Shown here piece by piece: positions 10,891 through 48,118 of a stretch of DNA of 64,000 nucleotides. The number at the start of each line of letters is the position of its first letter. The stretch's first letter is position 1. The translations under genes and the position numbers were made by a program. The stretch comes from a virus, in IMG/VR virus record IMGVR_UViG_3300021479_000014, positions 16,610-80,609 of that record; one strand, written 5' to 3'. The notes beneath the pieces were generated by a model. The model saw only the letters and a list, made by a program, of their open reading frames with translations, made no database searches and was not told the DNA's origin.

Positions 10891-10916
10891 GGGGAGGCGC
10901 AAGCCTCCCCTCTTTT
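10891..10916 (+). terminator. Intrinsic terminator
   Basis: ggggaggc-gcaa-gcctcccc followed by tctttt. Confidence 0.8.
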
Positions 10917-11137: not shown

Positions 11138-11162
11138 GGGGTGGCGCAAGCCACCCTTTTTT
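11138..11162 (+). terminator. Intrinsic terminator
   Basis: gggtggc-gcaa-gccaccc followed by a T-run. Confidence 0.8.
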
Positions 11163-11667: not shown

Positions 11668-13212
11668 CTAGAATAGATTATGCGATGACATGATGTTTCT
11701 TTCAGTAAAAGTAGGATATTCCCACACATCATTATCATCACCCCAATTAAATTTTGATTTAAGTCTAAAATCCATTAGCGCGCGACAAATACTCAATTTC
11801 GGAATTGTATAAACATTCAGCCGTTCTTTTCCGGCATTGTATTTATCAGTATGTTTTATCATACTAACAATTTTACCATTTGGATAAGTTTGTACTCTAC
11901 CATTATCAAGCTTTGGTATGAGCGCAGCAAATTGCATTCCAAACGATCGTGGATCACATCTATGTTTATCATTTATCCTCTTTTGAGCATCAACAAAATC
12001 TTGATATAATTTTTCTTTCACTACCATATATCCATTATCATTTTGATTAACAAATGGCAATTGGCCACTCACCAATAGATTAAACCACCAACGCTCTACA
12101 CCTGTCATAGTTTCAGTTTTCTGTTCAATTTGCGCCTCAGTTACCAATGCTGTTCTGAGATTAACATCAATTTTCCAATTCATCAATTCATACATGAATG
12201 CTTCCAATCCACCATGCTCCAATAGTTCTTCATCAAGAGCATCGAAATATGATTTAACATCCTTCTGAGCGCTGCTAACATTCAATACAAAAAATCTTCT
12301 TTCATCATATGATGCTGGAACTAGCCAATCAGCATTGCCAATTATGATTGAGCGAATATAGCTCTTCACACTACGACCTGGTAAGTTCTTTGGATTGATA
12401 AATAATGTATCGCCAGTTATGATATGTTTCAATGTGCTCTCGTGAGCCTTATCGCCTGCCCATATTGCTTCTTCCAAACATAACAATATTATCTTTTCCA
12501 AATGATCATTATGAGGGCCAAATATGGAATTTTTACTATCAATTGGCAAATAAATCTTTTGTTTTCGCTCTTCTGGGTAGCCATTCATCAATCGTCCAAG
12601 TGTGAGAGCCAAATATGATTTTCCTATCCCTTTGATACCTTTCAATACCAATGCTGTTCCAAGTTTATTCCATGGCTCTTGGAATATCTGAGCGCACCAA
12701 CACATTAGCCAATGATAATGCTCTTCATTACCACTGCATATAATATTTCTGATATAATCCAAGAACAAATGGCAATCGCCTTGTTTTGGCTCCATAGCAA
12801 ATCCACGCCATGTATTATATGCTCCACTGCGCATTGTTTTAGAATCAAATTTATATTTGGGATCGAATATGATTCCTTTCTCATATGTGCGCCTCAATGG
12901 CCAATCCAACCATAATTGTGATGCTGGAACTGCTTTTGGAGGTCCATCTTCTTGAGTTACATTGATTTTAATATGTCTTAATGAACTGATAAAATCTTTC
13001 TCAGTACGCAACTGCATTTCATCTTCTAATCGCTCATCAATAATCATAAATTTGCCCACTATAGATGTAATGGCTGATATGCTATCCACCCATTCGTTTG
13101 AATCTCTTGTAGATTTGATTTCTGGGCGCTCAGAACGTTTCTGTTGTGCGCCAAAGAGTGGATTATTTCTGAGCTGATTGAGACGGATGATGTTATCATC
13201 TTCTTCAGACAT
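11668..13212 (-). CDS. Primase-associated helicase (DUF5906 / D5-like SF3 NTPase)
   Basis: YNTWRGF, LKGIKGIGKS (Walker A), LCLEEA, ERRFFV; no primase domain. Confidence 0.85.
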   Translation of the reverse strand: MSEEDDNIIRLNQLRNNPLFGAQQKRSERPEIKSTRDSNEWVDSISAITSIVGKFMIIDERLEDEMQLRTEKDFISSLRHIKINVTQEDGPPKAVPASQLWLDWPLRRTYEKGIIFDPKYKFDSKTMRSGAYNTWRGFAMEPKQGDCHLFLDYIRNIICSGNEEHYHWLMCWCAQIFQEPWNKLGTALVLKGIKGIGKSYLALTLGRLMNGYPEERKQKIYLPIDSKNSIFGPHNDHLEKIILLCLEEAIWAGDKAHESTLKHIITGDTLFINPKNLPGRSVKSYIRSIIIGNADWLVPASYDERRFFVLNVSSAQKDVKSYFDALDEELLEHGGLEAFMYELMNWKIDVNLRTALVTEAQIEQKTETMTGVERWWFNLLVSGQLPFVNQNDNGYMVVKEKLYQDFVDAQKRINDKHRCDPRSFGMQFAALIPKLDNGRVQTYPNGKIVSMIKHTDKYNAGKERLNVYTIPKLSICRALMDFRLKSKFNWGDDNDVWEYPTFTERNIMSSHNLF

Positions 13213-15845: not shown

Positions 15846-15874
15846 ATTATAGCACGTTTTCTAATGTGAAGCAA
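15846..15874 (-). promoter_or_regulatory. Strong sigma70 promoter
   Basis: TTGCTT-N17-TATAAT with a TG extension on the minus strand. Confidence 0.7.
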
Positions 15875-16000
15875 ACCCACATTAAATAGTGGCGCATCAA
15901 GTCATCTATCACCATTATCAATAGCTGATGATATTTGACAATTGAACATGGCAAATCTGTGTATGAATTCTGAACCGCCAAAGTGCGGCAAAAATAGGGC

Positions 16001-16035: not shown

Positions 16036-16595
16036 TAGCCCGCTATAGGCGCGGGCGAAGACGATCTGATCTGACTTCTACTGCGGTTACACTTGACATT
16101 CCGCCGAAAGCGGTCTCTGCGGTTTTTGACAGATCCTACGACCCGCTGTTTGACATTCGAGGATTGCTTTATGCCGGCTGGGCTCGTCCGTGTTCGGGGC
16201 TGATTACGCATGTCTGAAGACATGCGGAGAATCAACAGGAGCGGTAAAAGGATCACTCGTAGAATAGCGCAAGTATCACGGGGTTGCGAAGAACAACGCT
16301 CTGATACGAAAGGCAAGCGCATGACAAGTTGCCTGAGGATGTTTGACCAGCCTTAGATGCAGGAAAACAGATTTGACGAACTCATGTAACACCCTGTTGA
16401 GTCCAAAAAGGCAAGAGACAGTGTTTTGAGGGTGCAAACTGGACGGGAAAAGAAACCGTACGTGGCGAGCAAGGGAACATCCGAAACCCAGACATTGTGC
16501 GATAGTGTCTGGTGACCCAAAAAATCAAAGACAGCAATACAGAGCACAGCGGGATGAAATAATCCTGCTGTGTTCAATAGTGCTGTCAGCACTAG
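16036..16595 (+). ncRNA. Putative large structured RNA / 5' leader (~560 nt)
   Basis: No credible ORF. Many hairpins, a long-range helix 16337-16343/16476-16482 and a possible pseudoknot. Confidence 0.55.
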
Positions 16596-16610: not shown

Positions 16611-17045
16611 ATGTCTTATAGAAGTAAAAAGATTCAAAAAGAAAAGCATGAATCTTATTCTGCATCATTGCGACAAATAGTTCTCTCAACAACAAGAGAA
16701 CGTCTACCACAACAAGACGGATATGTTGTGGCTCAAACGCCAAGAAAGAAGCGTTCTAAGTGGCGTATCGTAATTGATCCTGAAAATAGCAAGAAAACGC
16801 GAAAAGTTTCAGGATTCAGAATTAAAACATCAATTAAAGATCCAACTGTCAATCGTTATAGAGAAAACGATCAGAATTTAGGATATATCAACAAGAAGAA
16901 GTATTATGGGAGGTTTACGACTAATCCAAAGACCAAAGGGCGCGTCTTAGCTGTTATTCAGCAACCAGCGCAAGCAGCGTCTCAAGAGTCAGAATATATG
17001 CAGATCGAAGGAATAGTCATCGAAGGCGAGTATACTGAGGAGTAA
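16611..17045 (+). CDS. Very basic hypothetical protein
   Basis: SD aaggag; K/R-rich; first ORF after the structured RNA. Confidence 0.65.
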   Translation: MSYRSKKIQKEKHESYSASLRQIVLSTTRERLPQQDGYVVAQTPRKKRSKWRIVIDPENSKKTRKVSGFRIKTSIKDPTVNRYRENDQNLGYINKKKYYGRFTTNPKTKGRVLAVIQQPAQAASQESEYMQIEGIVIEGEYTEE

Positions 17046-17050
17046 GTACA

Positions 17051-17801
17051 ATGCGTGTCAAACACTTCGTGCATTCTAATCAACCAGAACAGAAGCGCAC
17101 CAGAATAGAGATTGAACTGCGAATGATGAATAATCGCAGAAAGAAAAGAGGACCAATAACACTAAAGCAACTAAACTTCATAAACAAACAACCACAGGAG
17201 AAGTAAAATGGCCGTATATGCGTTTGGACACCCAGGACAATGGTGGGCTGATGTAATGGGTAAAAGATACCCTTGCGTTGGCGCAATGCGAATAAAGAAT
17301 GACCACTACCAACAAGCGTATTCTCTTAATAAAGAGAAGTCGTGGAACCTCATAGAGGAAATTGAGGAGCTTCAAAAGGTTATAGTCAGAGAGGAAATAC
17401 TGCAAGCTAATGGCATCTATAAAGTGATAGGATATGTTGGCTTATTTCATGTACTCAATTTTATAGTAACAATTACTGATACCCACAAGATCGTTGATTT
17501 CGATCTTGGTCCGAAAATTGTTACGATCAAAAACCGCTAACCACAGGAGAGTAAAATGGCAAACATAAGCATACCGGTGGAACTTATCGACAGCTTCAAC
17601 TACTTCCTCAATAAGGGAGCTGGCGATCACAAAGCGAAGCCAATGATAGACGAACTTGGAATGACTAAGATAAGAAAGATAATGAAATTAAGAACGTTCT
17701 TCAATAAGAACGAGCAATATGGATACAGAATTGTTGCTCATGGTCCAGACGATAAAGAAGAAACTGGAGATGATAGCTATTACGAATTCATATTTCCGTA
17801 A
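17051..17801 (+). CDS. Three early hypothetical ORFs (17051-17206, 17208-17540, 17556-17801)
   Basis: The last two share the leader aaccacaggag(a)agtaaaATG. Confidence 0.6.
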
Positions 17802-17804
17802 ATA

Positions 17805-17861
17805 GATCGAAACAGCCAGTGCGATTGGCTGTCCTAGCGTTTGGCGCTAGCTGATGAGATC
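17805..17861 (+). ncRNA. Type II hammerhead ribozyme HH1
   Basis: gatc-GAAA-cagcca[gtgcgat]tggctg-TC^-ctagcg[tttgg]cgctag-CTGATGA-gatc; predicted cleavage after C17833. Confidence 0.9.
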
Positions 17862-18299: not shown

Positions 18300-18360
18300 G
18301 ACCGAAAGGGTGGCGCCACAAGCGCCATTCTCCTAGCGTTAGGCGCTAGCTGACGAGGTC
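18300..18360 (+). ncRNA. Type II hammerhead ribozyme HH2
   Basis: gacc-GAAA-gggtggcgc[cacaa]gcgccattc-TC^-ctagcg[ttagg]cgctag-CTGACGA-ggtc; cleavage after C18332. Confidence 0.9.
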
Positions 18361-18378: not shown

Positions 18379-20984
18379 ATGGTAAAAGCAGTATATTGGT
18401 ATGGACCAGATAAAACTGGTCACGACGACTTTGGTATGCCATACGGCGATTTTATGTTTGATGGCAAAACAAAGATGGGACCTTGGGCCTGCATGAGTAG
18501 CTATAGCTGGGAGAAACACGGCTGTGGCAAACTCGGAACTGGCTTTGGCCAGAAGTACAAGAGACAGGCTGATGGCCGTTGGCTTAAGGTGGAGGGTTAA
18601 ATGGCGCGCATCAGTGTAAGACGTGGATCTGAAGGTCCAGAACACGATCCGTATTCATATACGGAGATCACGTTCTACTTCACAGATTCTGAGCGATCAA
18701 AAGTCGTTTATCATAGAGGATTAGGTGAGTGGCTTAAATATGGTGGTCGAACATACGACGCTAGTGACAGTTGGTTACCATCGTCAATTGACTATCTATT
18801 TAAGCACATAACTGGACTCTCAGTTCGTAGAGCCGAAGAGATTCCAGAGATGCTGTTTGAGCGTTCCATGCGTAAATACACTAAAGCTGAGCGCTGGGCC
18901 ATCATGGAATGCATCGAAGCCGATGAGGCCATGCTCAGAAACTGCTATTGAAATAATTGAACTTTGGAGCGCAGCAATGCGCTCCGCTTTTAGGCAATTT
19001 TGCCAGACTGAGGAGAATAAAATGAGGTACGTTGTTATCAATAGAGCATGTGATGGAACACATATTTCGTCACATGCTACGTTTGAGAAAGCACAAAAGC
19101 GTGTGGAAGAAATGGTTGGCAGAAGAGAAGGGCCATTCAAACTTAATCAACCCTATTGTTCTGATTGGGGTAACGTTCTCACAATCGAGGAGCGCCCAGG
19201 CAATTGGACTGCGAATACTGAGCGGCGCGTTTCCGAGGCTTTTGATGCTAACGAATGTGGTTTTGCAACAAAGGCTCAAATTAAATTGTTGCATGAAAAG
19301 GGTTGGCTGACAGGAGAGTAAATGACAGAAAATCAAGAGTTTAGTATTTGGATGTCAAGGGTAGAATTTTACCTTGAATCTATGGTAAAGAAGTCGTTGA
19401 CACTATTGAAGTCATATGACTATCGCGATGACTTCAATAAAGGTTTTCTACCAGAAGAAACAGCAACTCGTGTAATTCAAAGGAGCAGAAAATGGCAAAG
19501 AAAGACCCGTGGATAATATGCCCTGTCTGTGAAGGAGAGGGAAAGACAGTCAATCCAAATATTGACGCGAATGGATTGACTGCGGAAGACTTCAATGAAG
19601 ACCCAGACTTCAGAGAAGACTATATGAGCGGCGTATATGACATTACGTGCGCTGCATGTGGAGGTCAACGCGTCATCAAGAAGCAACGCATGAAAGAGCT
19701 GGCGCGAAATGCCGAAAGTCGCCGTCTGGCTGCTCGTGAAGATGGCGATTATGAAGGCTATTGCGGCGCTGGTGATTGGAGATATGGATAATGCATATCC
19801 TCCTTACCATAATTGTTATCATTGTACTAGTGGTTGTTTTTAGCAACCTAAATCAACAAGGAGTGATAACAGCTTGGAAAGGTCCAAATAACAATCTTGG
19901 TTGTATACCATTATTGTTAGTCTTTATATTTACCATTTGGGCCTTATGCCAATTGCCTGTAATACATTGAACTTAATGGCAGGTGCGATCTGCCATCTTT
20001 TAGGCAATTTTGCCAAACTAGGAGAATAAAATGGATAATCCTACAGTAGTGGTAGAAATAGAAGTGGATGCCGTACAAGAGGCCATCCAAACAATCCGAA
20101 AGATCAATAGCAAGATTGCTTGGGTGCTGGAAAATAATCCGCCATACAAGCAGAAGGAGCTTGATGATCTGAAGTATCGCAACGCCAATCTTACACTGGT
20201 TGAGTTGCGCCTCACTAAAGCTCTGAGCGATAGGGCTTTGGCCAATCAAGCCAAGGGCAATGTCGTTAAGATGGGAGGCAAGAAATGAGAAAGGCTCTAT
20301 TGGCAGAATATAAAGTCAAGCCAAATGGCACAAAACTCCTTGACGATTTCAGAGGAGACAGAATTTATGGTAATTGTTATATTATCATAAAGGCTGGCGT
20401 AGAAATCTACGAGGTTATTACCTCAACGTTGGGTGATTGGTGTAACTGCCCAGCCGGACAACATGAGAAGAAATGCAAGCATCTATCTATGGTGTATGAT
20501 TTCAAAGAGAAGGAAGAAAAGGTCATATGAAATACAATGCGACGTGTACGCTTCAAGCAGTACATATCAAAACTGGCAAAGTGATAGATATTTGTCAGTT
20601 TGATTCTTCTCCTCTTGAGATAGAAGCATCTTCACAAGAAGACGCAGACGAAAAATGGTCCAGACGCTGCCTCATCGAGGCAATGTGCTCTGGTTCTGAT
20701 ATAGCCAGAAAAGAATACAAGCAAGGGAAATGGAAATGAATAAACAAGACAAAGCCAGGTATCCTTTTATACGTGCCTGGGGCTACCAACTTGGTTCTTT
20801 TCAATATTATATCGAGAGTGAAATTGAAAGAGCCATTCGAGAAAATGCTCCTGAGCGTGCCATTTATAAAAGTGGTGCAGGAGGGTGGCGAACTATAGAT
20901 GACTGCAAGGATGAAGCAGTCAAACAACAGTGTATTGATTGGGTAGAAGCACATAAGAACGATCAATACGTTTCTGACGAATAA
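18379..20984 (+). CDS. Early hypothetical ORFs (18379-18600, 18601-18951, 19022-19321, 19322-19516, 19492-19791 Zn-finger, ~19791-19970, 20031-20288, 20285-20530 SWIM-like, 20527-20739, 20730-20984)
   Basis: Contiguous and SD-preceded; CPVC..CAAC and CNCPA..CKH motifs. Confidence 0.6.
18956..19024 (+). repeat. Repeated two-hairpin intergenic leader, copy 1
   Basis: attgaactt-[ggagcgca gcaa tgcgctcc]-cttttaggcaattttgcca-gactgaggagaataaaATG. Confidence 0.7.
19966..20033 (+). repeat. Repeated two-hairpin intergenic leader, copy 2
   Basis: attgaactt-[atggcagg tgcga tctgccat]-cttttaggcaattttgcca-aactaggagaataaaATG. Confidence 0.7.
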
Positions 20985-21045
20985 GACCGAAACTGGCCGC
21001 AGTGATGCGCCCAGTCGTTGCGTAATGCGCAGCCTGACGATGGTC
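20985..21045 (+). ncRNA. Type II hammerhead ribozyme HH3
   Basis: gacc-GAAA-ctggccgca[gtga]tgcgcccag-TC^-gttgcg[taatg]cgcagc-CTGACGA-t-ggtc; cleavage after C21016. Confidence 0.85.
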
Positions 21046-21065
21046 AGTAACCCAAGGAGATGTAA

Positions 21066-21209
21066 ATGGGCGATCCAGAAGAGCATAAAGACGAAGAGTT
21101 GACTGTAAAATCTGATGCTCCAAAGGAAGAAGGGCCAAAAACAGATCCAGAAGAGAAAGAGGCGGATCCAATTCGCCCAGGAGAAGGCGGACAACCTGAA
21201 GTAGCGTAA
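21066..21209 (+). CDS. 47-aa highly acidic protein (not in track)
   Basis: MGDPEEHKDEELTVKSDAPKEEGPKTDPEEKEADPIRPGEGGQPEVA; SD aaggag; lies between HH3 and a terminator. Confidence 0.65.
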   Translation: MGDPEEHKDEELTVKSDAPKEEGPKTDPEEKEADPIRPGEGGQPEVA

Positions 21210-21216
21210 TCAACTT

Positions 21217-21251
21217 GCCGCTCCCATTTTAGGGAGGATGGGAGCGGTTTT
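21217..21251 (+). terminator. Intrinsic terminator
   Basis: gccgctcccat...atgggagcggt followed by a T-run. Confidence 0.75.
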
Positions 21252-21266
21252 AACTAGGGATGGAAA

Positions 21267-24200
21267 ATGATAACCATAAAAGAAATCACTTCTATGAAAG
21301 AGTTTGCTATCATAAGAAGTGCTTTGGAACTATATGTCGCTACTCTGAGTGAAGAGTATGACAGTAAGCAAACACGCCTCAAACTTAAAAAACTTGAGGA
21401 AGCCCAAAAATGTCTGAAAGACTTCAAACAACTAGGAGAACAAAATGGCAAACTTCAAAAGGCTACCGTCACTTAAACCCTGCCATTGCGGCAGCGGTTT
21501 GGAAAGAGAAGCGCGTTATGATGCGCGTGGAATCTTCCTCACATATGTCTGCGAGAAGTGTGTGGAAGAGAAACTGGGTAAATTTCGCCCGGAAGTTCTA
21601 ACTGATCCCAATTATGATCTTATGGGAGAAGAGTTAGACGATGATGGTGATCTTGCAGATCCTGATATTCATCGCGATCTGCCGGATTTTGAAGATCCGG
21701 ATGTTCTCAGATGAAAACTCTTATCACGATGGGTGCGCTGCTAATTTCAGGCAGCGCACAGGCTATGTGTGATTTTGAACATCATTGCTATCAAGATACA
21801 CCACCGCCGCAAGTATATCATAATCTAAACGGAGACGTGATACCGCCTCCGCCTCCTCAATATCCTAAGCCTAATCAAATTATAGTTCATGCACCAACAC
21901 CACAAGTGACAATAAATGCGAATGTTTGTAAGTTGGTAAGAATTAGAGTAGCGCCAGAAGCTCCACAAACAATAGTTGAAATCTGCACAATGTCTGATGA
22001 TGAAGAAAGAATGTATCGTCAGAGACAGAGTCAACTACAAGCATCTATTCCACAATTTCAACCCTATTAAGGAATCACCTGGTCTTTTCAACAGCCCCCC
22101 GGTTGTTATAGGCCAGGTGAAGACTTGCCGCCAGGATTTGTACTGCGTACCTGGCGGATTTTTTGTCAATTTAGGAGGCAGTAATGGCAACCTATCATTA
22201 TTCCATGTTGGGAATGGTAAGAGTAAGACAACTTCCAGATAAATGGGTACTTGAAGTATCCTACAAGGATGAGGATGTCCAATCTGGATATTACAAACAT
22301 GACCAGATATGGCACCTAGTAGGCGAATGTTCTGATCTTGTCCAAGTAGGTGAACTAGTTTTGAACCTATGCAAAGAGGAGACCAAACGTGTCTGACTCA
22401 AGGAGGAAAGAAAGTGGTTGAGCAAAGGCGTTATATGAGTATCGTAATTGCCATCCTCAGAGAGGAAGGTTTGTACAGTATGGCAATGTCTAATGATCTG
22501 TATGTGTGGATCAACAAGCGTATCAGCGAGAACCATCAGAAAGGTCTCACTGTCCTAGAATGTGTGAAAAATATCAAGAAGGAACTTCAGCATGCCAGAG
22601 CATAAACTGCCAAAGCGTTTAAAGCTACCAGTAGTTCCGATGGAAGGTAACTTCATGTTTATAATTAAACCTGAAGATACTCAATTTGCTGAAGGGAAGA
22701 TATTGGAGACTTTACCAGATGTTGATATGCTTACATTTGGAGTTGGCGGTTTATTAGAAATCATCCCTTTATTCACTAAGTTTGGTGGACGTCCATGTGT
22801 TGCTTTCTGTAATGAAGAAGGCAAATTATATGGACTTCCTCCTAATCATTTAGCCCATATGCTTTGGGAACAAAACTTGGGGCGCATCATAACTGAAGAT
22901 CAACTTGTTGGAAATGTGGTTGTTGTTGTAGGATCACCATCATTCTTAAGGAGGATGTGATGAAGAAAATCCTCGTCATAACTCTAACCATAGGAACGAT
23001 AAATGCAGCAGATGCTCATTGTTACTCTCGCTGGTATTATCCGTTTCCTCAAAACTGTGGAGTCGCTTATCGCAGCCACTCCCATCGCATGGCTCTATTA
23101 CAGCTTGATTCCACTCCTCCTGTTCGTCCTGTTTCTATTGATTTCCCATTACCTGATCTGAGTGGAATATGGATCAACGCTACAGAAACTCCAGAACAAT
23201 TAGAATTAATGGAAGCAATGGATCGTATCAAAGCTATTAGAATATTATCAAATAATTAATTTGCCAATTTGGCAAGGAGACAGCTATGAATAAGGCAGAA
23301 CTCAAGGTAGTTGCTGATGCCAAGGGAGAAATTGAAGATGCAAAGGAGAAAGTTTCCAATTTTATCGATGAGATCATAACAAAGACAATAGATCCAATGA
23401 TAGAAACCATTGGAAATCTGCAAGATGAGCTGCAAGCGCAGTTTGACGATCTTTCTGAGAAGACCCAGGAAGGTGATAAGGGGACAAAACTCACAGAAGA
23501 AATAGACGCTCTTGGTGAGCTCAAAGATGAACTCGATACGTTCAAGACAGAGTTTGATGATACAGCGTTCGACGATATCATCGCTAAGTTCGATGATGTA
23601 CCAGGACTGACTGCATAGTTTTGCTTGACGTACCAGCCTTAAGGCTACCGCAAACCCCCGACAGGAACTGGCGTTGATATAGCACAGTCAACGAAAGTCA
23701 AGCAATGGGTGGGAGGAGGTATTTTGAATGGCATCCTAGCCTCCTCCCATTTCTTATATGGAGAGAAAAATGAACACATGTGAAGTTATGCACCAATATA
23801 AAGATGGGTTAGTAATAAAATGGAATAATTCTATATGGGTTGTTAGAGCAGATGGAGATCAGCCATCCTTGTGGCCTGTTGCGATTGTTGAGCGCAATGC
23901 ACAAGGAAGATTATCATTCAAAATTCCTAAAGGAACTGACATTGCTAATGCCAATGCAGTTCTTGCATCACTTATCGGAATTAATGACTTCTTTAAATAG
24001 GAGCGCCACATGCCAGTAGGTCCAGGTAAATATGATGGAGAAGCAACATGGGTACAAGCGCGCACCCAAGCTACTGGTGTATTACTAATGATAGTAGACG
24101 GTAATAAAGGTAATGGATTTTCAATAGCCAGTTTTGATATTCAAGCAACTCTTGATATTACATTGGTATTACCAAAATTATTAAGGGAAATGGCAAATCA

Positions 24201-25202: not shown

Positions 25203-26226
25203 CCAGGAAACTAAAATGTATCTCATGGATCATATAATAGAAACAGTTCACGAAGCTAAAAAGAGACGATTGTTGAATCATCCAGTTATAAGTGTCTTCC
25301 CAATATTGGAAGAGAAACTGAAAGGATGTCCACGTTTCTTATTTGATGAAAACTCAATACATACAGCAGTTGAACTTACTCTGGGGCGCCCCAAAGTTCT
25401 CAGAGAAGCCATGGCGCATCTTACCATACCTTATTCAAGAATGTGGATAGAATGGCCAGAATCTGGTAGAGAAAGATTGAGGCAAACATTCTCAATAGAT
25501 GCTTTTGAGCATCCAAATAGACCTTTACCAACCCGTCTTGGCTTTTTGTTAGAAGCAGATGAAGCTGGTAGAAAAGGAATGGTAACTTGGGTCTGGAGTA
25601 ATCATTTTATTAAAAAAGGAGAGCCACCTAATGTGTGTCCAATATCTGCTTTCTTTGATCTAGATTTTGATTACGGAAAGTTATCCAATTCGCATATGTC
25701 AAGCTTTTTGGACGCAAATCTAGCACACATTTGGAGAAACAAACCAATTCAATTAGCTGCGCTCCAGAGTATATGGGACACAGCAGTACATAAGCCATCT
25801 GATTGGGGAATGAGATTTCTAGAACTTCCTACTCCAACATCTCCATTTGGACACACCAATAATGAAGTAGCCAATTTCTACGCAGACGTTTATGGTGAAT
25901 ACATTATGGTTTGGTCTTGCCTAATGCTTCTTACCAGTTCTAGGAAGATCATAGATCTAGAAGAAGTTGACATGTCTAAACTTAATCAGATTCGTAAACG
26001 AATGAACAAACCTGTAAAGCTGGACCATACTGTAGTGAGCATGTATATTAATCAAGATGTTCACGTACACAAGCCAGGTGTGCCGTTAGGATTTGATAGA
26101 AAGAGTCCTCGAATTCATATGGTTTCTCGCTATCTAAATAGACGTGGCGATAAACATTGGATAGTGGAGCCTTTCTGGCGCGGCAAAGGTGAAGTTATAA
26201 GCAGACATGTGAAGGTAAAAGTTTAG
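25192..26226 (+). CDS. Hypothetical phage protein
   Basis: 344 aa; C-terminal SPRIHMV.R...W..PFWRG. Confidence 0.65.
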   Translation: MYSNQETKMYLMDHIIETVHEAKKRRLLNHPVISVFPILEEKLKGCPRFLFDENSIHTAVELTLGRPKVLREAMAHLTIPYSRMWIEWPESGRERLRQTFSIDAFEHPNRPLPTRLGFLLEADEAGRKGMVTWVWSNHFIKKGEPPNVCPISAFFDLDFDYGKLSNSHMSSFLDANLAHIWRNKPIQLAALQSIWDTAVHKPSDWGMRFLELPTPTSPFGHTNNEVANFYADVYGEYIMVWSCLMLLTSSRKIIDLEEVDMSKLNQIRKRMNKPVKLDHTVVSMYINQDVHVHKPGVPLGFDRKSPRIHMVSRYLNRRGDKHWIVEPFWRGKGEVISRHVKVKV

Positions 26227-29570: not shown

Positions 29571-29676
29571 TTCTCCTTTTCTTACTTTCTTGCCCTAAGT
29601 ATAGCGCAAGTAGAGGCGTAAGTATAGATCGAATATCGCAAGTAGAATGTTAACTCTCACAGCAGGAGCACAACTA

Positions 29677-30027
29677 GTGGCAAACTTCACGTACAAATCA
29701 TACAACTTTGTAGACAAAGATCCCATAATTGATGAGATAAGGACTGTCTATCAAGATAGCGGTGTGAATTATAGGTGGATTGAAGAAAATTCTGGTGTAA
29801 CTGCCCAGACATTATCTGCTTGGTTTAATGGCAGAACTAAGAAGCCACAGGCAGCAACCATCAACGCAGTTCTTCGATCATTAGGCTACAAGCTCGGTAT
29901 TGTTGAATATGGGAAACAACAAGTTAAAGTTTTTCCAGCAATGGAACAGCCAAAAACTTCTGTTAGACATCAAAATGTCGTAACAATCCAGAAATACAAC
30001 AAGTTCAAGAAAGCTAAAAGAAGATGA
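29677..30027 (+). CDS. XRE-like HTH protein
   Basis: SGVTAQTLSAWFNGRTKKPQAATINAVLRSLG; GTG start after aggag. Confidence 0.7.
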   Translation: MANFTYKSYNFVDKDPIIDEIRTVYQDSGVNYRWIEENSGVTAQTLSAWFNGRTKKPQAATINAVLRSLGYKLGIVEYGKQQVKVFPAMEQPKTSVRHQNVVTIQKYNKFKKAKRR

Positions 30028-40697: not shown

Positions 40698-41227
40698 TAG
40701 CCACAGTCTTTGATACAGAAACTACAGGATTGATCATCAATCCAGCACGTTCTCTTGCGCTGCAACCAGAGATCATCTCTTTTGCAGCGCAAGAGTTCAA
40801 TTTGATGACTGGTGAGAAATTTAATTCATTTTATAGAATATTCAAGCCAACTAGACCTATAAGTGAAGAGATAACAAAGATCACAGGATTTACCAATGAG
40901 CAACTTGCTATAGAACCGCCAATAAAAGATAGTTTAGATGAGATAACTATAATGCTGGAAAAAGCAAATTTGCTTATTGGTCAAAATATTACGTTTGATA
41001 AAGGTATGGTGGAATTAGAATTGAAACGATACGGTAAGAGAATTTTATGGCCAATGTCACTAGACTTAGTTGAGCATACTATCTATCTTAAAGGGTACAG
41101 ATTGAGTTTAACTAATTTACATTTGGAGTTGTTTGGTGTAGGATTTGAGTCTGCGCACCAAGCCAATGTAGACGTTGATGCAACATATCGTTGTGCTGTG
41201 GAATTATACAAGCGAGGGTTACTGTGA
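40694..41227 (+). CDS. dnaQ: DEDDh 3'-5' exonuclease (Pol III epsilon-like)
   Basis: FDTETTG, QN..FD, AHQA..DV. Confidence 0.88.
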   Translation: MIATVFDTETTGLIINPARSLALQPEIISFAAQEFNLMTGEKFNSFYRIFKPTRPISEEITKITGFTNEQLAIEPPIKDSLDEITIMLEKANLLIGQNITFDKGMVELELKRYGKRILWPMSLDLVEHTIYLKGYRLSLTNLHLELFGVGFESAHQANVDVDATYRCAVELYKRGLL

Positions 41228-44109
41228 GGATCAGGTCTGAGTATAGCTTTCGCTATGCTTATGGTAAACTACCAGACGTACATAATCGCGTTCTGGAAAT
41301 GGATTGGAGTGCTTGTCCAATTAGTGATAGGATAAGCACATTCAGCTTTACCTCTTGGAATTTACTATGCGAACAAGTAAAAATGAAGCCAGTATTTGGT
41401 GTAGAATTAGGAGTCACATCTCTATTAGGTGTTAAGAGACCAGCTACATCTTTTTGGTCATTCTTTGCGCTCGATAAGTTGCGCACCATAAATGAATTGG
41501 TATATCAGACTACAAATAAGCCAGGACATTATCCATTATTAGATTATGGAGAAGCTTGCACTACTATAGATATGATTAAGATAGCTGACAATAAGGTCCA
41601 GTTACATGAAGTATATCCACATGATAATTTCTATATTGCACTGTCTCCATCAACGCCAATTGGATTATTTAGAGAAGCCAAATCTAGATGTTTTAACTTT
41701 ATGGCATCATCAGATAATGTGTTTCCATATGTAGAGGATAGAATACCGTATCATACCATTCTCTATAAAAATGCTGAGACAGCATCCTATCCACAATACA
41801 TCTTAACAGACGAAGAATGGCGCAAGTCTTTGCCATATGTCATAACAGATGAAGATGCACAACAGGCTATCAATAATAGAAATGAAGCTATGTTGCGGTG
41901 CAATGCAGTCTTGCTCAAAGCTGATGTATTTAAGCCAAAGAACAATTTCTCATTAAGAGATATGTGTGAGGAAGGTGCGCGTGAATTAGGTGTAGATTTA
42001 AATGATCCTCTCTATGCAGAACGTATGGAGAGAGAATTAAAAATGATTTACGATAAAGGATTTCAAGATTATTTTTACATTGTGGCAGATATGATGGCGT
42101 TTGCCAAGCAACACATGATAGTGGGGCCAGGCCGTGGATCATCAGCGGGTTCTTTGGTTTGTTATATTTGTGGCATTACAGCTGTTGATCCTCTTAGGTT
42201 CAATCTATTATTTGAAAGGTTCATCGACGTTACACGTACAGATCTTCCTGATATTGATCTTGATTTCAGCGATGTTAAGCGCCAGTTGGTTTTTGATTAT
42301 ATTCGTGACAAGTATGGAAATAACCATGTAGCGCGCTTAGGCTCAGTAATGAGTTATAAGCCTAAGTCCATCCTTAATACAGCTGGCGCTGCATTAGGTA
42401 TACCAAAATGGCTATGTGATAAAGTAGCTGATACTTTGATCGAAAGATCTTCAGCTGATTCGCGTGCGCTGCAAACGTTTGAGGAAACCTTCTATGACAC
42501 AGAAATAGGAAGGAAATTACTCAATGATTATCCAGAAATTTCTGCTGTTTTTGAAGTCGAAGATCATGCAACAAATGCAGGCCAGCATGCAGCCGGTATC
42601 GCCATTACTAGTGGTGAAGTATTGGACTATGTTGCTATTGATGGTCGCACTGGCGCAATCATGGCAGATAAGTACGATGCAGAGATTCTCAATATTCTTA
42701 AAATCGACTGTCTGGGCCTTTCCCAGCTATCTATATTTGAACGCGCCTTGGAATTAATAGGAGAAAATCCAAAGAACGGATTTCTTGAAATGCTGCCGTT
42801 AGATGATCAAACAGCATATGACGTTTTAAATAAGAAGCAATTCTCAGGTATATTCCAAGCAAATGGAAAAAGCTTGCAGATTTTGTTCCAATCTATTCAT
42901 ACTGATAGATTTGATGATTTAGTAGCAATCACTTCTCTGTCGCGCCCAGGTCCAGTTGCCTCTGGCGGTGCTGTTCGTTGGACACGCAAGAGAATGGGAA
43001 CAGAGCCAACAGTTTTTAAACATCCATTATTGGCGTCACATCTTGAAAGTACATATGGAGAAGTAGTCTATCAAGAACAGATTATGTCCATTTGTAGAGA
43101 TGTTGGGAAAATGCCTTTCTCTGAAATAGAGAAGGTTAGACGCGCCATGTCTAAGTCTCTGGGCGTAGAAGCCATTAAAGAATGGGGACAATCATTCAAA
43201 AGAGGCGCGCTAGAGAATGGAATATCAGAAGAATTGATAGATGTTATTTGGGGAGAGTTGACGCAATTCGGAGCATGGGCTTTTAATAAATCTCATGCAC
43301 TATCTTATTCTCTTATCACATATTGGTGTTGCTGGCTTAAGGCGCATCATCCAGTAGAGTTTGCTGCGGCTACTCTTGATAATGAAGCAGAGCCTATGAA
43401 GCAATTGCATCTTCTACGCGAACTTGACATAGAAGGTATTAAATATAAGCCATTAGATGTTGAACATTCAATAGATAAATGGACAATTAAAGTAGAAGAT
43501 GGTAAGAAAATTCTAGTTGGACCTTTGACAAATATCAAAGGCGTAGGTCCAGTTACTGTTCGCAAGATAATGGAATCACGCAACGGTGGTGCGCCACTAA
43601 CGCCAGCAATCTTAGATAAATTGGCAATAGCATCAACAAAGATAGACTCATTAACGCCTATTAGTGATGCAATCAATAAGTTGCATCCAGATTTAACTGC
43701 AATAAAAATCTTTTCTAGTCCAACTCCTATATCTGATTTGTATGCAGGATTAGATGGAGAATATATGATCTTTGGATTAGTCAAAAGAATACAGCCTAGA
43801 GATGAGAATGACTTGCACTCGATAGCAAAAAGAGATGGCAGAAAGTTGGAAGGTCCATCTTGGAGTTTAAATCTGTTTATGCATGACGATACAGATGAGA
43901 TACTCTGTAAGATTGATAGATTTGATTACGAAACATCAGGAAAGAGAATTGAAGAAATAGGCGGACAAGGTGATGCGCTCTATGCCATAAAAGGCCGCAT
44001 CCCACGCGGCTTTAGAATGATTTTAATATCAGGTATAAGATATTTGGGACGTATGTCTGATTTGGATATAAAAACGCCTAAGTATCAAGGAGCGGATCTG
44101 TTCGCATGA
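41224..44109 (+). CDS. dnaE: DNA polymerase III alpha subunit
   Basis: GPGRGSSAGSLV.Y..GIT.VDPL...LLFERF...DLPDIDLDF, HAAG, KID.LGL, YQEQIM, AFNKSHA. GTG start at 41224 overlaps the dnaQ stop. Confidence 0.95.
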   Translation: MRIRSEYSFRYAYGKLPDVHNRVLEMDWSACPISDRISTFSFTSWNLLCEQVKMKPVFGVELGVTSLLGVKRPATSFWSFFALDKLRTINELVYQTTNKPGHYPLLDYGEACTTIDMIKIADNKVQLHEVYPHDNFYIALSPSTPIGLFREAKSRCFNFMASSDNVFPYVEDRIPYHTILYKNAETASYPQYILTDEEWRKSLPYVITDEDAQQAINNRNEAMLRCNAVLLKADVFKPKNNFSLRDMCEEGARELGVDLNDPLYAERMERELKMIYDKGFQDYFYIVADMMAFAKQHMIVGPGRGSSAGSLVCYICGITAVDPLRFNLLFERFIDVTRTDLPDIDLDFSDVKRQLVFDYIRDKYGNNHVARLGSVMSYKPKSILNTAGAALGIPKWLCDKVADTLIERSSADSRALQTFEETFYDTEIGRKLLNDYPEISAVFEVEDHATNAGQHAAGIAITSGEVLDYVAIDGRTGAIMADKYDAEILNILKIDCLGLSQLSIFERALELIGENPKNGFLEMLPLDDQTAYDVLNKKQFSGIFQANGKSLQILFQSIHTDRFDDLVAITSLSRPGPVASGGAVRWTRKRMGTEPTVFKHPLLASHLESTYGEVVYQEQIMSICRDVGKMPFSEIEKVRRAMSKSLGVEAIKEWGQSFKRGALENGISEELIDVIWGELTQFGAWAFNKSHALSYSLITYWCCWLKAHHPVEFAAATLDNEAEPMKQLHLLRELDIEGIKYKPLDVEHSIDKWTIKVEDGKKILVGPLTNIKGVGPVTVRKIMESRNGGAPLTPAILDKLAIASTKIDSLTPISDAINKLHPDLTAIKIFSSPTPISDLYAGLDGEYMIFGLVKRIQPRDENDLHSIAKRDGRKLEGPSWSLNLFMHDDTDEILCKIDRFDYETSGKRIEEIGGQGDALYAIKGRIPRGFRMILISGIRYLGRMSDLDIKTPKYQGADLFA

Positions 44110-47350: not shown

Positions 47351-48118
47351 ATGGACGCGTTTGACAAGATTAGATATTCTCCAATGGAGAAAAAGATTTT
47401 GGCTGCTATCCCGAAAGATGGCAGATATATCTCTACTTTAGAGTTAGTGGATATAGTTTATACAGATCCACCAAGGAACGCACGGCAATCAATTTTGACT
47501 GCTGTCAATTCGCTCATCAGTAAGAGCGACGAGAATATGGAACCTTGGGAAATTTTCAAATCTAAGCCTAGAGGTAGCCAACCCAGTTATTTCTGGTGTA
47601 AAGTACGAGAGTGAAGTGTGCTTTAGACTACAAAAATAAGACGTATTTTTTTAAACAGCTTCCCAGGCATCATAGGCGGCCGATACGGTTCTAGGCTAGG
47701 GATATGCCCGACAAGGTAAAACGACCGTGCTAGGGCCGTTTCTAGCGGTTTAATCCGCTATCCTGCCCGCGATCTAGCACGATCCGTGCGAGCTAAACAG
47801 AGGGAGAGCCACATGCAAAACATCTCAGAAATCAAAGTCCTAATTGATGAAATGGAAATGAAGATTGAATCATACGGAGATAAGACCGTATGGCAAAAAT
47901 CCAATAGCTCGGATTGGTACACTTTCGTTGTAGAAAGTGGCCCTAAGATTATCCAAAGTTGGAGAGAATTGGCTGCTTTGGTAAGACTTACGCCAGGAGA
48001 TCAATTACTAGAATTGATTGCTAAACTAGAAAGCATCCAAGCAATGGTTGCCAATCAAGACGTAATGCAGCTTGCAGTGAAACTCAACCGCTCTGTGGCG
48101 CCACCAATACAAGAATGA
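47351..48118 (+). CDS. Two hypothetical ORFs (47351-47614 winged-helix-like; 47813-48118)
   Basis: SD-preceded ATGs within the track ORFs. Confidence 0.5.

Follow-up and report, generated by a model that had tools for sequence, protein, structure and literature searches.

Polycistronic phage transcripts can be cut between genes at RNase E or RNase III processing sites with protective flanking hairpins, as in the gene 32 region of T4 and at the early RNase III sites of T7. For hammerheads that flank single genes of prophage operons, a proposed role is to divide long transcripts into mRNAs the length of one gene (Perreault et al. 2011, PMC3088659), and the PeSLs of T4-like phages are composite terminator/promoter cassettes (Arbiol 2010, PMC2839356; Comeau 2014, PMC4122927). 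Here we analyze a repeated two-hairpin RNA element, referred to below as the cassette, that lies between early genes of a phage from IMG/VR. The window, meaning the whole stretch of DNA that was analyzed, comprises 64,000 nucleotides and corresponds to bases 16610-80609 of the 80.6-kb record IMGVR_UViG_3300021479_000014. An earlier note on this DNA had described two copies of such a motif at 18956-20033, and we found both of them there.

Each full copy has the layout ATTGAACTT (box 1), hairpin P1, CUUUUA (linker J), hairpin P2 (GGCA-AUUU-UGCC), A, four nucleotides, a Shine-Dalgarno sequence (SD), and AUG. P2 lies 5-6 nt from the SD and 16-17 nt from the AUG. The parts of the two copies are as follows.

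18956-18964, plus strand: box 1 of copy 1 (ATTGAACTT); the stop codon TGA of the upstream open reading frame (ORF) is at 18949-18951
18965-18986, plus strand: P1 of copy 1, 9 bp with a GCAA loop
18987-18992, plus strand: linker J of copy 1, CUUUUA (CTTTTA), single-stranded
18993-19004, plus strand: P2 of copy 1, GGCAATTTTGCC (GGCA-AUUU-UGCC), with the conserved 3' A at 19005
19010-19015, plus strand: SD of copy 1, with the ATG at 19022
19966-19974, plus strand: box 1 of copy 2, with TGA inside it at 19968-19970 as the stop of ORF 19791-19970
19975-19996, plus strand: P1 of copy 2, near-identical to hammerhead stem III hairpins of the related phages G005 and G006
19997-20002, plus strand: linker of copy 2, CUUUUA (CTTTTA)
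20003-20014, plus strand: P2 of copy 2, with the conserved A at 20015
20020-20024, plus strand: SD of copy 2, with the ATG at 20031

RNA folding of both full copies returned exactly P1 and P2, with minimum free energies of -21.5 (copy 1) and -18.2 kcal/mol (copy 2) and z = -2.7 and -2.8, respectively. The P1 hairpins of the two copies differ in sequence and both fold, in agreement with the earlier description of a first hairpin that changes its sequence and stays paired, and the 19-nt core CTTTTAGGCAATTTTGCCA is the same in both. With up to three mismatches allowed, this 19-mer has three matches in the window versus 0.03 expected from shuffles, the third being a site without P1 on the minus strand (15792-15774). 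Across the family, P1 is 7-13 bp long and mainly G-C, which gives it the GC-rich hairpin of an intrinsic terminator, and the CUUUUA tail has 4 U, which is below the scan rule of 5 T in 8 and resembles the tails of the phage's stand-alone putative terminators. The linker (C)UU(U)UA between P1 and P2, along with the AU-rich P2 loop, offers an AU-rich single strand of the RNase E type between stable hairpins. The upstream stop codon is mostly in or immediately 5' of box 1, at positions -6 to -8 (TGA) or -10 to -12 (TAA) relative to P1.

In total, ~37 copies of the cassette were found across ~15-20 related uncultured phage contigs (genomes and contigs carry G and L numbers below). Exact-core scans of IMG/VR and metagenome contigs returned the core preceded by a hairpin that differed from case to case, together with a few obvious chance matches inside unrelated coding DNA, and whole-record searches of relatives contributed diverged copies. 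A gapped pattern scan of IMG/VR (box, N15-36, CTTTTAGG) added at least three further real copies, although the matches listed were mainly due to chance. Among 29 hairpin-bearing copies, P1 has 28 distinct sequences, all of which pair, with three to six standard pair types at each position of the stem. A covariance model, a kind of check suggested in the earlier note, recovered 25 copies at E < 1e-6. In the model-based alignment, six of the eight P1 pairs show changes on both sides, and the P1 covariation score is 0.315 versus 0.117 in shuffles (0 of 500 attain it) and at most 0.10 in slid controls. Unanchored MAFFT and RNAalifold overlooked P1 because of misalignment, and P1 was recovered with the stem-anchored alignment and the covariance model. 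RNAalifold on the 29 copies gave P1 and P2 only, with no third helix or pseudoknot partner.

P1 contains ~20 G·U or U·G pairs versus one A·C, a bias of ~20:1 indicating that it is the sense-strand RNA that folds. On either arm of the divergent early region, every copy points the same way as the genes, and at least one copy is present per divergent early operon in G000, G003, G004, and G006. Phages of the G000 type have 2-5 copies, compared with more than 14 for G002. Box 1 is lineage-dependent (AUUGAACUU versus AGCCUAUU), and it lies 17-26 nt from the core, depending on hairpin length. Identity over the 19-nt core is retained across phages with proteins that are ~50% identical.

The P2 stem also changes while remaining paired. 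G003 and L071 have GGUC/GACC instead of GGCA/UGCC at the orthologue of the copy 2 junction, and one-sided changes mainly keep a wobble pair (GGUC/GGCC, GGCG/UGCC, and GGCA/UGCU). The stems of G002, a more distant phage, read GUCC/GGAC, GCUC/GAGC, GCCC/GGGC, GCCU/AGGC, and GCCG/UGGC, besides two canonical GGCA/UGCC, and that of L075 is GUGC/GCAC. Overall, there are ~10-12 different stems, in which the first pair is always G-C and the loop nearly always starts with (A/C)UU. Of 188 P1-like hairpins located before an SD and a start codon, 33 are followed by such a P2, versus 1.3 expected from shuffles. The P1-linker-P2-SD layout recurs at more than 14 consecutive co-directional gene junctions of G002. 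At 26.3-35 kb of that genome (L041 6300-15000), the junctions read P1, U-rich linker, 4-bp hairpin, GGAGGUAAC, and AUG, and many of the small hairpins have the form UA-GCUC-A...GAGC-A, which is tRNA D-arm-like.

Three hammerhead-like elements neighbor the cassettes in the window.

17805-17861, plus strand: hammerhead-like element 1 (GAUC-GAAA, stem III hairpin, UC, stem I hairpin, CUGAUGA-GAUC)
18300-18360, plus strand: hammerhead-like element 2, with a stem III hairpin nearly equal to P1 of the G003 orthologue of copy 1
~20985-21066: hammerhead-like element 3, spotted by eye, with an extra base in stem II

A scan with the pattern GAAA, hairpin, hairpin, CUGANGA, and complementary 4-nt stem II detected two elements in the window and three to eight in most relatives, and gave one spurious-looking match each in G002 and G004. 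Stems I, II, and III of the hammerhead-like elements all covary, and the type II consensus of PMC3088659 fits them. None is scored by Rfam 15 or by RF02276, even at E = 10; either the Rfam model or the filters miss this short-stem variant. Such elements are also seen in G001, G005, and G006 (L037, L050-L051, L054-L055).

Homologous genes can be preceded by either kind of element. Homologues of gene 19022 have the cassette in G000, G003, and L071 and a hammerhead in G001, while homologues of gene 17880 have a hammerhead in G000, G003, and G005 and a P2-only element in L078. Judging by their sequences, the P1 hairpins and the hammerhead stem III hairpins are one common pool, and the breakpoints in gene order between phages coincide with hairpins. 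Like type II hammerheads, the cassette sits between a stop codon and an SD of a polycistronic phage operon and has two hairpins around a presumed cut; the two kinds of element also share 5' hairpins and are interchangeable upstream of homologous genes. Unlike those ribozymes, the cassette has no CUGANGA/GAAA core, stem II, or three-way junction, P2 is a stand-alone module, and any cleavage would require a protein. The earlier note had likewise seen no intact hammerhead core. CUGANGA 3' of the stem I hairpin is found in copy 1 alone (CUGAGGA, by chance) and is absent from copy 2 and all homologues. Where a hammerhead would have GAAA 5' of stem III, together with an A15.1-U16.1 pair and a cleavable H17, the cassette has GAAC-UU before P1 and CUUUUA after it. 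RNAalifold on the 29 copies detected no hammerhead stem II closing a three-way junction. With covarying hairpins, a sense-strand G·U bias, and homologous genes that carry either element, the proposal of a repeated intergenic RNA motif in the hammerhead slot is supported.

Parts of the cassette are also found separately in the window.

15792-15774, minus strand: copy 3, linker and P2 only (GGCA-AUAC-UGCC), in the leader of the leftward operon
23261-23275, plus strand: copy 4, P2 only with a flipped pair (UUGCCA-AUU-UGGCAA; stem GCCA/UGGC), abutting the SD of gene 23286
21209-21266, plus strand: box-like CAACTT, P1 (21218-21247), and UUUUAA, without P2, followed by an SD and the AUG at 21267
22119-22183, plus strand: AGACTT box, P1 (22128-22157), and AUUUUUUG, without P2
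47301-47350, plus strand: TGAAGACTT, P1 (47310-47334), and CUUUUA, without P2, followed by an SD and the AUG at 47351

Copy 3 lies ~35 nt downstream of a promoter-like TTGCTT-N17-TATAAT and ~50 nt upstream of the DUF3631 start (15723). The sites orthologous to copy 4 in G005 and G006 read UUAGGCA(U/C)UUUGCC, and P2 alone also occurs in L072, L078, G004, and G006. The P1 hairpin at 22128-22157 is present in G001, G005, and G006, where it is joined to the P2 GGCA-AUUU-AGCC and to another gene. The joining of the same box and hairpin to different modules and genes points to a recombination breakpoint between P1 and P2, and, as with PeSLs, a repeated cassette borders shuffled small ORFs. The counterparts of window 22111-22183 are at G001 12276-12339, G005 41007-41067, and G006 43484-43546, and the gene downstream of these counterparts is a homologue of window 25216-26226.

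We tentatively favor, at a little less than an even chance, a reading in which the cassette is a ribozyme-free punctuation element that is cut in its U-rich linker by a protein RNase, leaving each cistron capped by hairpins. It is favored because the order of parts, from the stable P1 through the U-rich single strand to the small P2 and the SD, is that of an intercistronic processing site for a protein RNase. The cassette would serve as a modular sense-strand RNA that fills the gaps between cistrons of polycistronic early transcripts, with box 1 carrying the stop codon of the upstream gene (TAA and/or TGA), followed by a GC-rich P1 of free sequence, a short U-rich linker, a small P2, and the next SD and AUG. 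A protein endoribonuclease, perhaps one of the host similar to RNase E or one of the phage that recognizes P2, would cut the transcript within the linker. P1 would then be left at the 3' end of the upstream cistron, shielding that end, and P2 at the 5' end of the downstream cistron, where it could shield the end and leave the SD free. Such hairpin-capped products would match those of the neighboring type II hammerheads, predicted to self-cleave between stem III and stem I, and P1 with its U run may possibly also act as a leaky terminator. Like the RNase E and RNase III sites of T4 and T7, the cassette has an AU-rich single strand between a 3' and a 5' hairpin, just before a translation start, and its predicted products are hairpin-capped monocistronic mRNAs; those sites, in contrast, form no conserved two-hairpin family, and cleavage of the cassette is only predicted. 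The more than 14 serial junctions of G002 argue against a regulator site used twice per genome and against efficient termination at each junction.

Several points weigh against this reading. We infer processing from anatomy alone. P1 followed by CUUUU resembles the putative terminators of the phage at 10891 and 11138, so that termination alone could explain P1 and J. RNase E prefers RN|WUU, which the linker fits in some copies only. The invariant G-C pair and loop start of P2 point to a sequence-specific reader, which could be a translational repressor or activator equally well as a nuclease, and pairing between the U run and the SD is possible in roughly half of the copies, as would fit a translational switch. 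Finally, G002 is linked to the window by shared architecture and by the two canonical copies in the G002 series, not by a tree. An endoribonuclease site and a translational operator, both of which had been put forward in the earlier note, are viable.

The main rival, which we regard as rather unlikely, combines a leaky intrinsic terminator, in which P1 and the U run attenuate transcription, with a protein operator, in which P2 binds a phage RNA-binding protein. That protein could resemble RegA and repress or activate the translation of early genes, or it could be an RNA polymerase-loading factor like λ N at boxB. It ranks as the main rival because P1 and CUUUU are like the stand-alone putative terminators of the phage and because the conserved loop start, invariant closing G-C, and covarying upper stem of P2 are the pattern of a protein-read hairpin. 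P2 found alone directly 5' of an SD, the presence of at least one copy on each divergent early operon (G000, G003, G004, and G006), the very basic small products of the first rightward genes (pI 10-11.6), and the possible pairing of U run and SD in ~half of copies are also consistent with this combination. However, P2 would be untranscribed whenever P1 terminated and hence unable to control its own P1, and a regulon-wide operator would skip many early genes, as hammerhead junctions are without P2. The cassette shares with intrinsic (Rho-independent) terminators a GC-rich hairpin with an immediate U run, but has only 4 U after C and is serial within operons (more than 14 in G002, where efficient termination would silence distal genes), and the same P1 hairpins double as hammerhead stem III without a U run. 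It resembles λ-type nut sites (boxA and boxB hairpin) in its small hairpin with a conserved 5' U-rich flank and in having copies on both divergent early operons, one of them just downstream of an early promoter-like site. It differs from them in having no GNRA-like pentaloop, in reaching 14 or more copies per genome, in always abutting the SD, and in following rather than preceding the partner terminator. A λ-type nut site as such, with one per early operon upstream of overridden terminators, was rejected, as copy number and the position of P2 3' of P1 disagree with it.

A passive structural insulator, like the hairpin of the synthetic RiboJ insulator, would need neither cleavage nor a dedicated factor: P1 would block 3' exonucleases and long-range pairing, and P2 would hold the SD region locally folded and accessible. 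Local hairpins do fill every short intergenic gap, the sequence of P1 is free apart from pairing, and the modules are found in all combinations. We nevertheless consider this explanation doubtful, since it leaves unexplained both the invariant UUA-G...C-A frame and (A/C)UU loop start over ~10-12 P2 stems and the 19-nt identity across phages with ~50%-identical proteins. Just as doubtful is a cassette cut by an undescribed mechanism interchangeable with hammerheads, be it a tiny new self-cleaving motif or the site of a dedicated nuclease, phage-encoded or host-recruited, that reads the UUA-G[stem]-(A/C)UU hairpin. In a PeSL-like arrangement, P1 would end the upstream transcript, and host RNA polymerase, together with a phage factor, would use the core as a promoter to restart transcription for the next gene. 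A stem-loop with a conserved block between small early ORFs, conserved flanks, and cassette shuffling between related phages with breakpoints at the hairpins recall the PeSLs of T4-like phages (PMC4122927), and the conserved A of UGCCA lies 7 nt past ...AAU and 13-21 nt ahead of the start codon. PeSLs, however, have a recognizable σ70-type or Mot-type promoter with N17, whereas no promoter geometry fits the cassette: no -35/-10 pair at 16-18 bp could serve the downstream gene, and the spacing between box 1 and core is variable (17-26 nt). The conserved block of the cassette is itself a covarying RNA hairpin, and P2 covaries through wobble intermediates without keeping its sequence in G002, which argues against a DNA promoter read by sequence. 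There was no candidate phage RNA polymerase, and no sigma factor among ~40 proteins scanned; the largest ORFs encode DnaE, tail proteins, and, among leftward genes outside the window, an unscanned product of 1181 aa. We therefore judge a PeSL-like promoter very unlikely.

Even less probable is a self-cleaving RNA, either a small ribozyme of a new kind or a derivative of the hammerhead, that substitutes for hammerheads at some junctions. The cassette does occupy the hammerhead slot, has stem III/P1 hairpins in common with hammerheads, and carries GAAC for GAAA 5' of the hairpin; moreover, new ribozyme classes reportedly turned up as motifs neighboring hammerheads in the work of Weinberg et al. 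in 2015. Against this, P2 alone and box with P1 without P2 both occur, box 1 varies by lineage, few nucleotides are invariant across G002-type copies, CUGANGA is missing in all copies but one, RNAalifold found no third helix or pseudoknot partner, and no Rfam ribozyme family matched even to E 10. The self-cleavage option raised in the earlier note is for these reasons unlikely. A DNA-level element, consisting of hairpins extruded from single-stranded DNA for priming or of linkers for cassette-shuffling homologous recombination, is similarly improbable. Its orientation flips across the divergent region, possibly also a replication origin, and hairpins are exchanged between elements and phages at the points where gene order shifts. 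Yet in DNA the many G·U pairs would become G·T mismatches, placement between stop codon and SD is strict and always on the coding strand, and recombination at hairpins could equally be a consequence of repetition.

Known families and other identities were also searched for. Rfam 15 yielded no family at gathering score, at E <= 5 (whole window), or at E <= 10 (3.6 kb); the families covered include twister, twister-sister, pistol, hatchet, HDV-like, and Drum, and the same searches miss the neighboring hammerhead-like elements. RF02276 had no match against the whole genome. Readings of the core as a σ70, σ54, σE, or Bacteroidetes-type promoter failed in spacing or key bases, both by eye and by scan. 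The sole match of the promoter scan, TTGCCA-N18-GATAAT at copy 2, would start transcription inside the ORF and is absent in homologues. A symmetric operator for a dimeric DNA-binding protein was rejected because the left flank is invariant, the right flank is free, and the stem covaries with wobble. A CRISPR repeat or crRNA mimic, with box 1 like the AUUGAAAC handle, was rejected in view of the variable "spacer", which in every case folds on itself as a hairpin common to hammerheads. No trans-acting antisense partner was found in the genome, where the opposite strands of the sites themselves were the sole matches. A full-text literature search with the core sequence gave chance primer matches only. 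With no matching Rfam family or paper found, neither the covarying two-hairpin family nor its interchange with hammerheads appears to have been described before.

The 80.6-kb record is rated complete by CheckV and encodes DnaE, an SNF2 helicase, ligase, ThyX, and terminase. A nucleotide search of cultured phages with the phage sequence gave no match, and its DnaE is at most 35% identical to that of any cultured phage; by these comparisons, no cultured phage is a close relative. At ~15.7-16.6 kb of the window is a divergent control region, from which a leftward operon (DUF3631, DUF5906) departs in one direction and a long array of small ORFs in the other. This region contains a leftward-facing near-consensus TTGCTT-N17-TATAAT (15847-15875, minus strand) and, at 15930-15975 (plus strand), TTGACA followed immediately by ATTGAAC, a word common to box 1. 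The first two rightward early genes (16611-17206) encode very basic small products of 144 aa (pI 10.0) and 51 aa (pI 11.6), which are candidate RNA-binding factors. Searches of 10 early proteins against Pfam and PHROGs returned ORFan families only and no regulator. Putative terminators of canonical appearance at 10891-10910 and 11138-11157 have a GC stem, a GCAA loop, and a U run (UCUUUU or UUUUU); the former is bidirectional and closes a self-contained small gene unit. The 15-nt word AG(A/T)ATAGCGCAAGTA occurs three times (16261-16275, 29598-29612, and 29630-29644). Two of these copies are directly upstream of a weak HTH_3 gene (29677-30027), making them candidate operators of the HTH_3 regulator.

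Intercistronic punctuation in phage operons is a known kind of element, and the present family would fall within it. As a defined, covarying, and unannotated RNA family adjoining ribozymes, the cassette is a lead for ribozyme hunting, and it could possibly be used as a compact natural insulator part for synthetic operons. If a dedicated nuclease does read P2, the system would be a bacterial-virus analogue of the "tRNA punctuation" of polycistronic RNA. The purpose of phage hammerheads has been an open question since 2011. The occurrence at the same gene junctions of either a hammerhead or this apparently protein-dependent cassette, with common 5' hairpins, is evidence from a natural comparison for intercistronic punctuation as the selected function, yielding single-gene mRNAs capped by hairpins.

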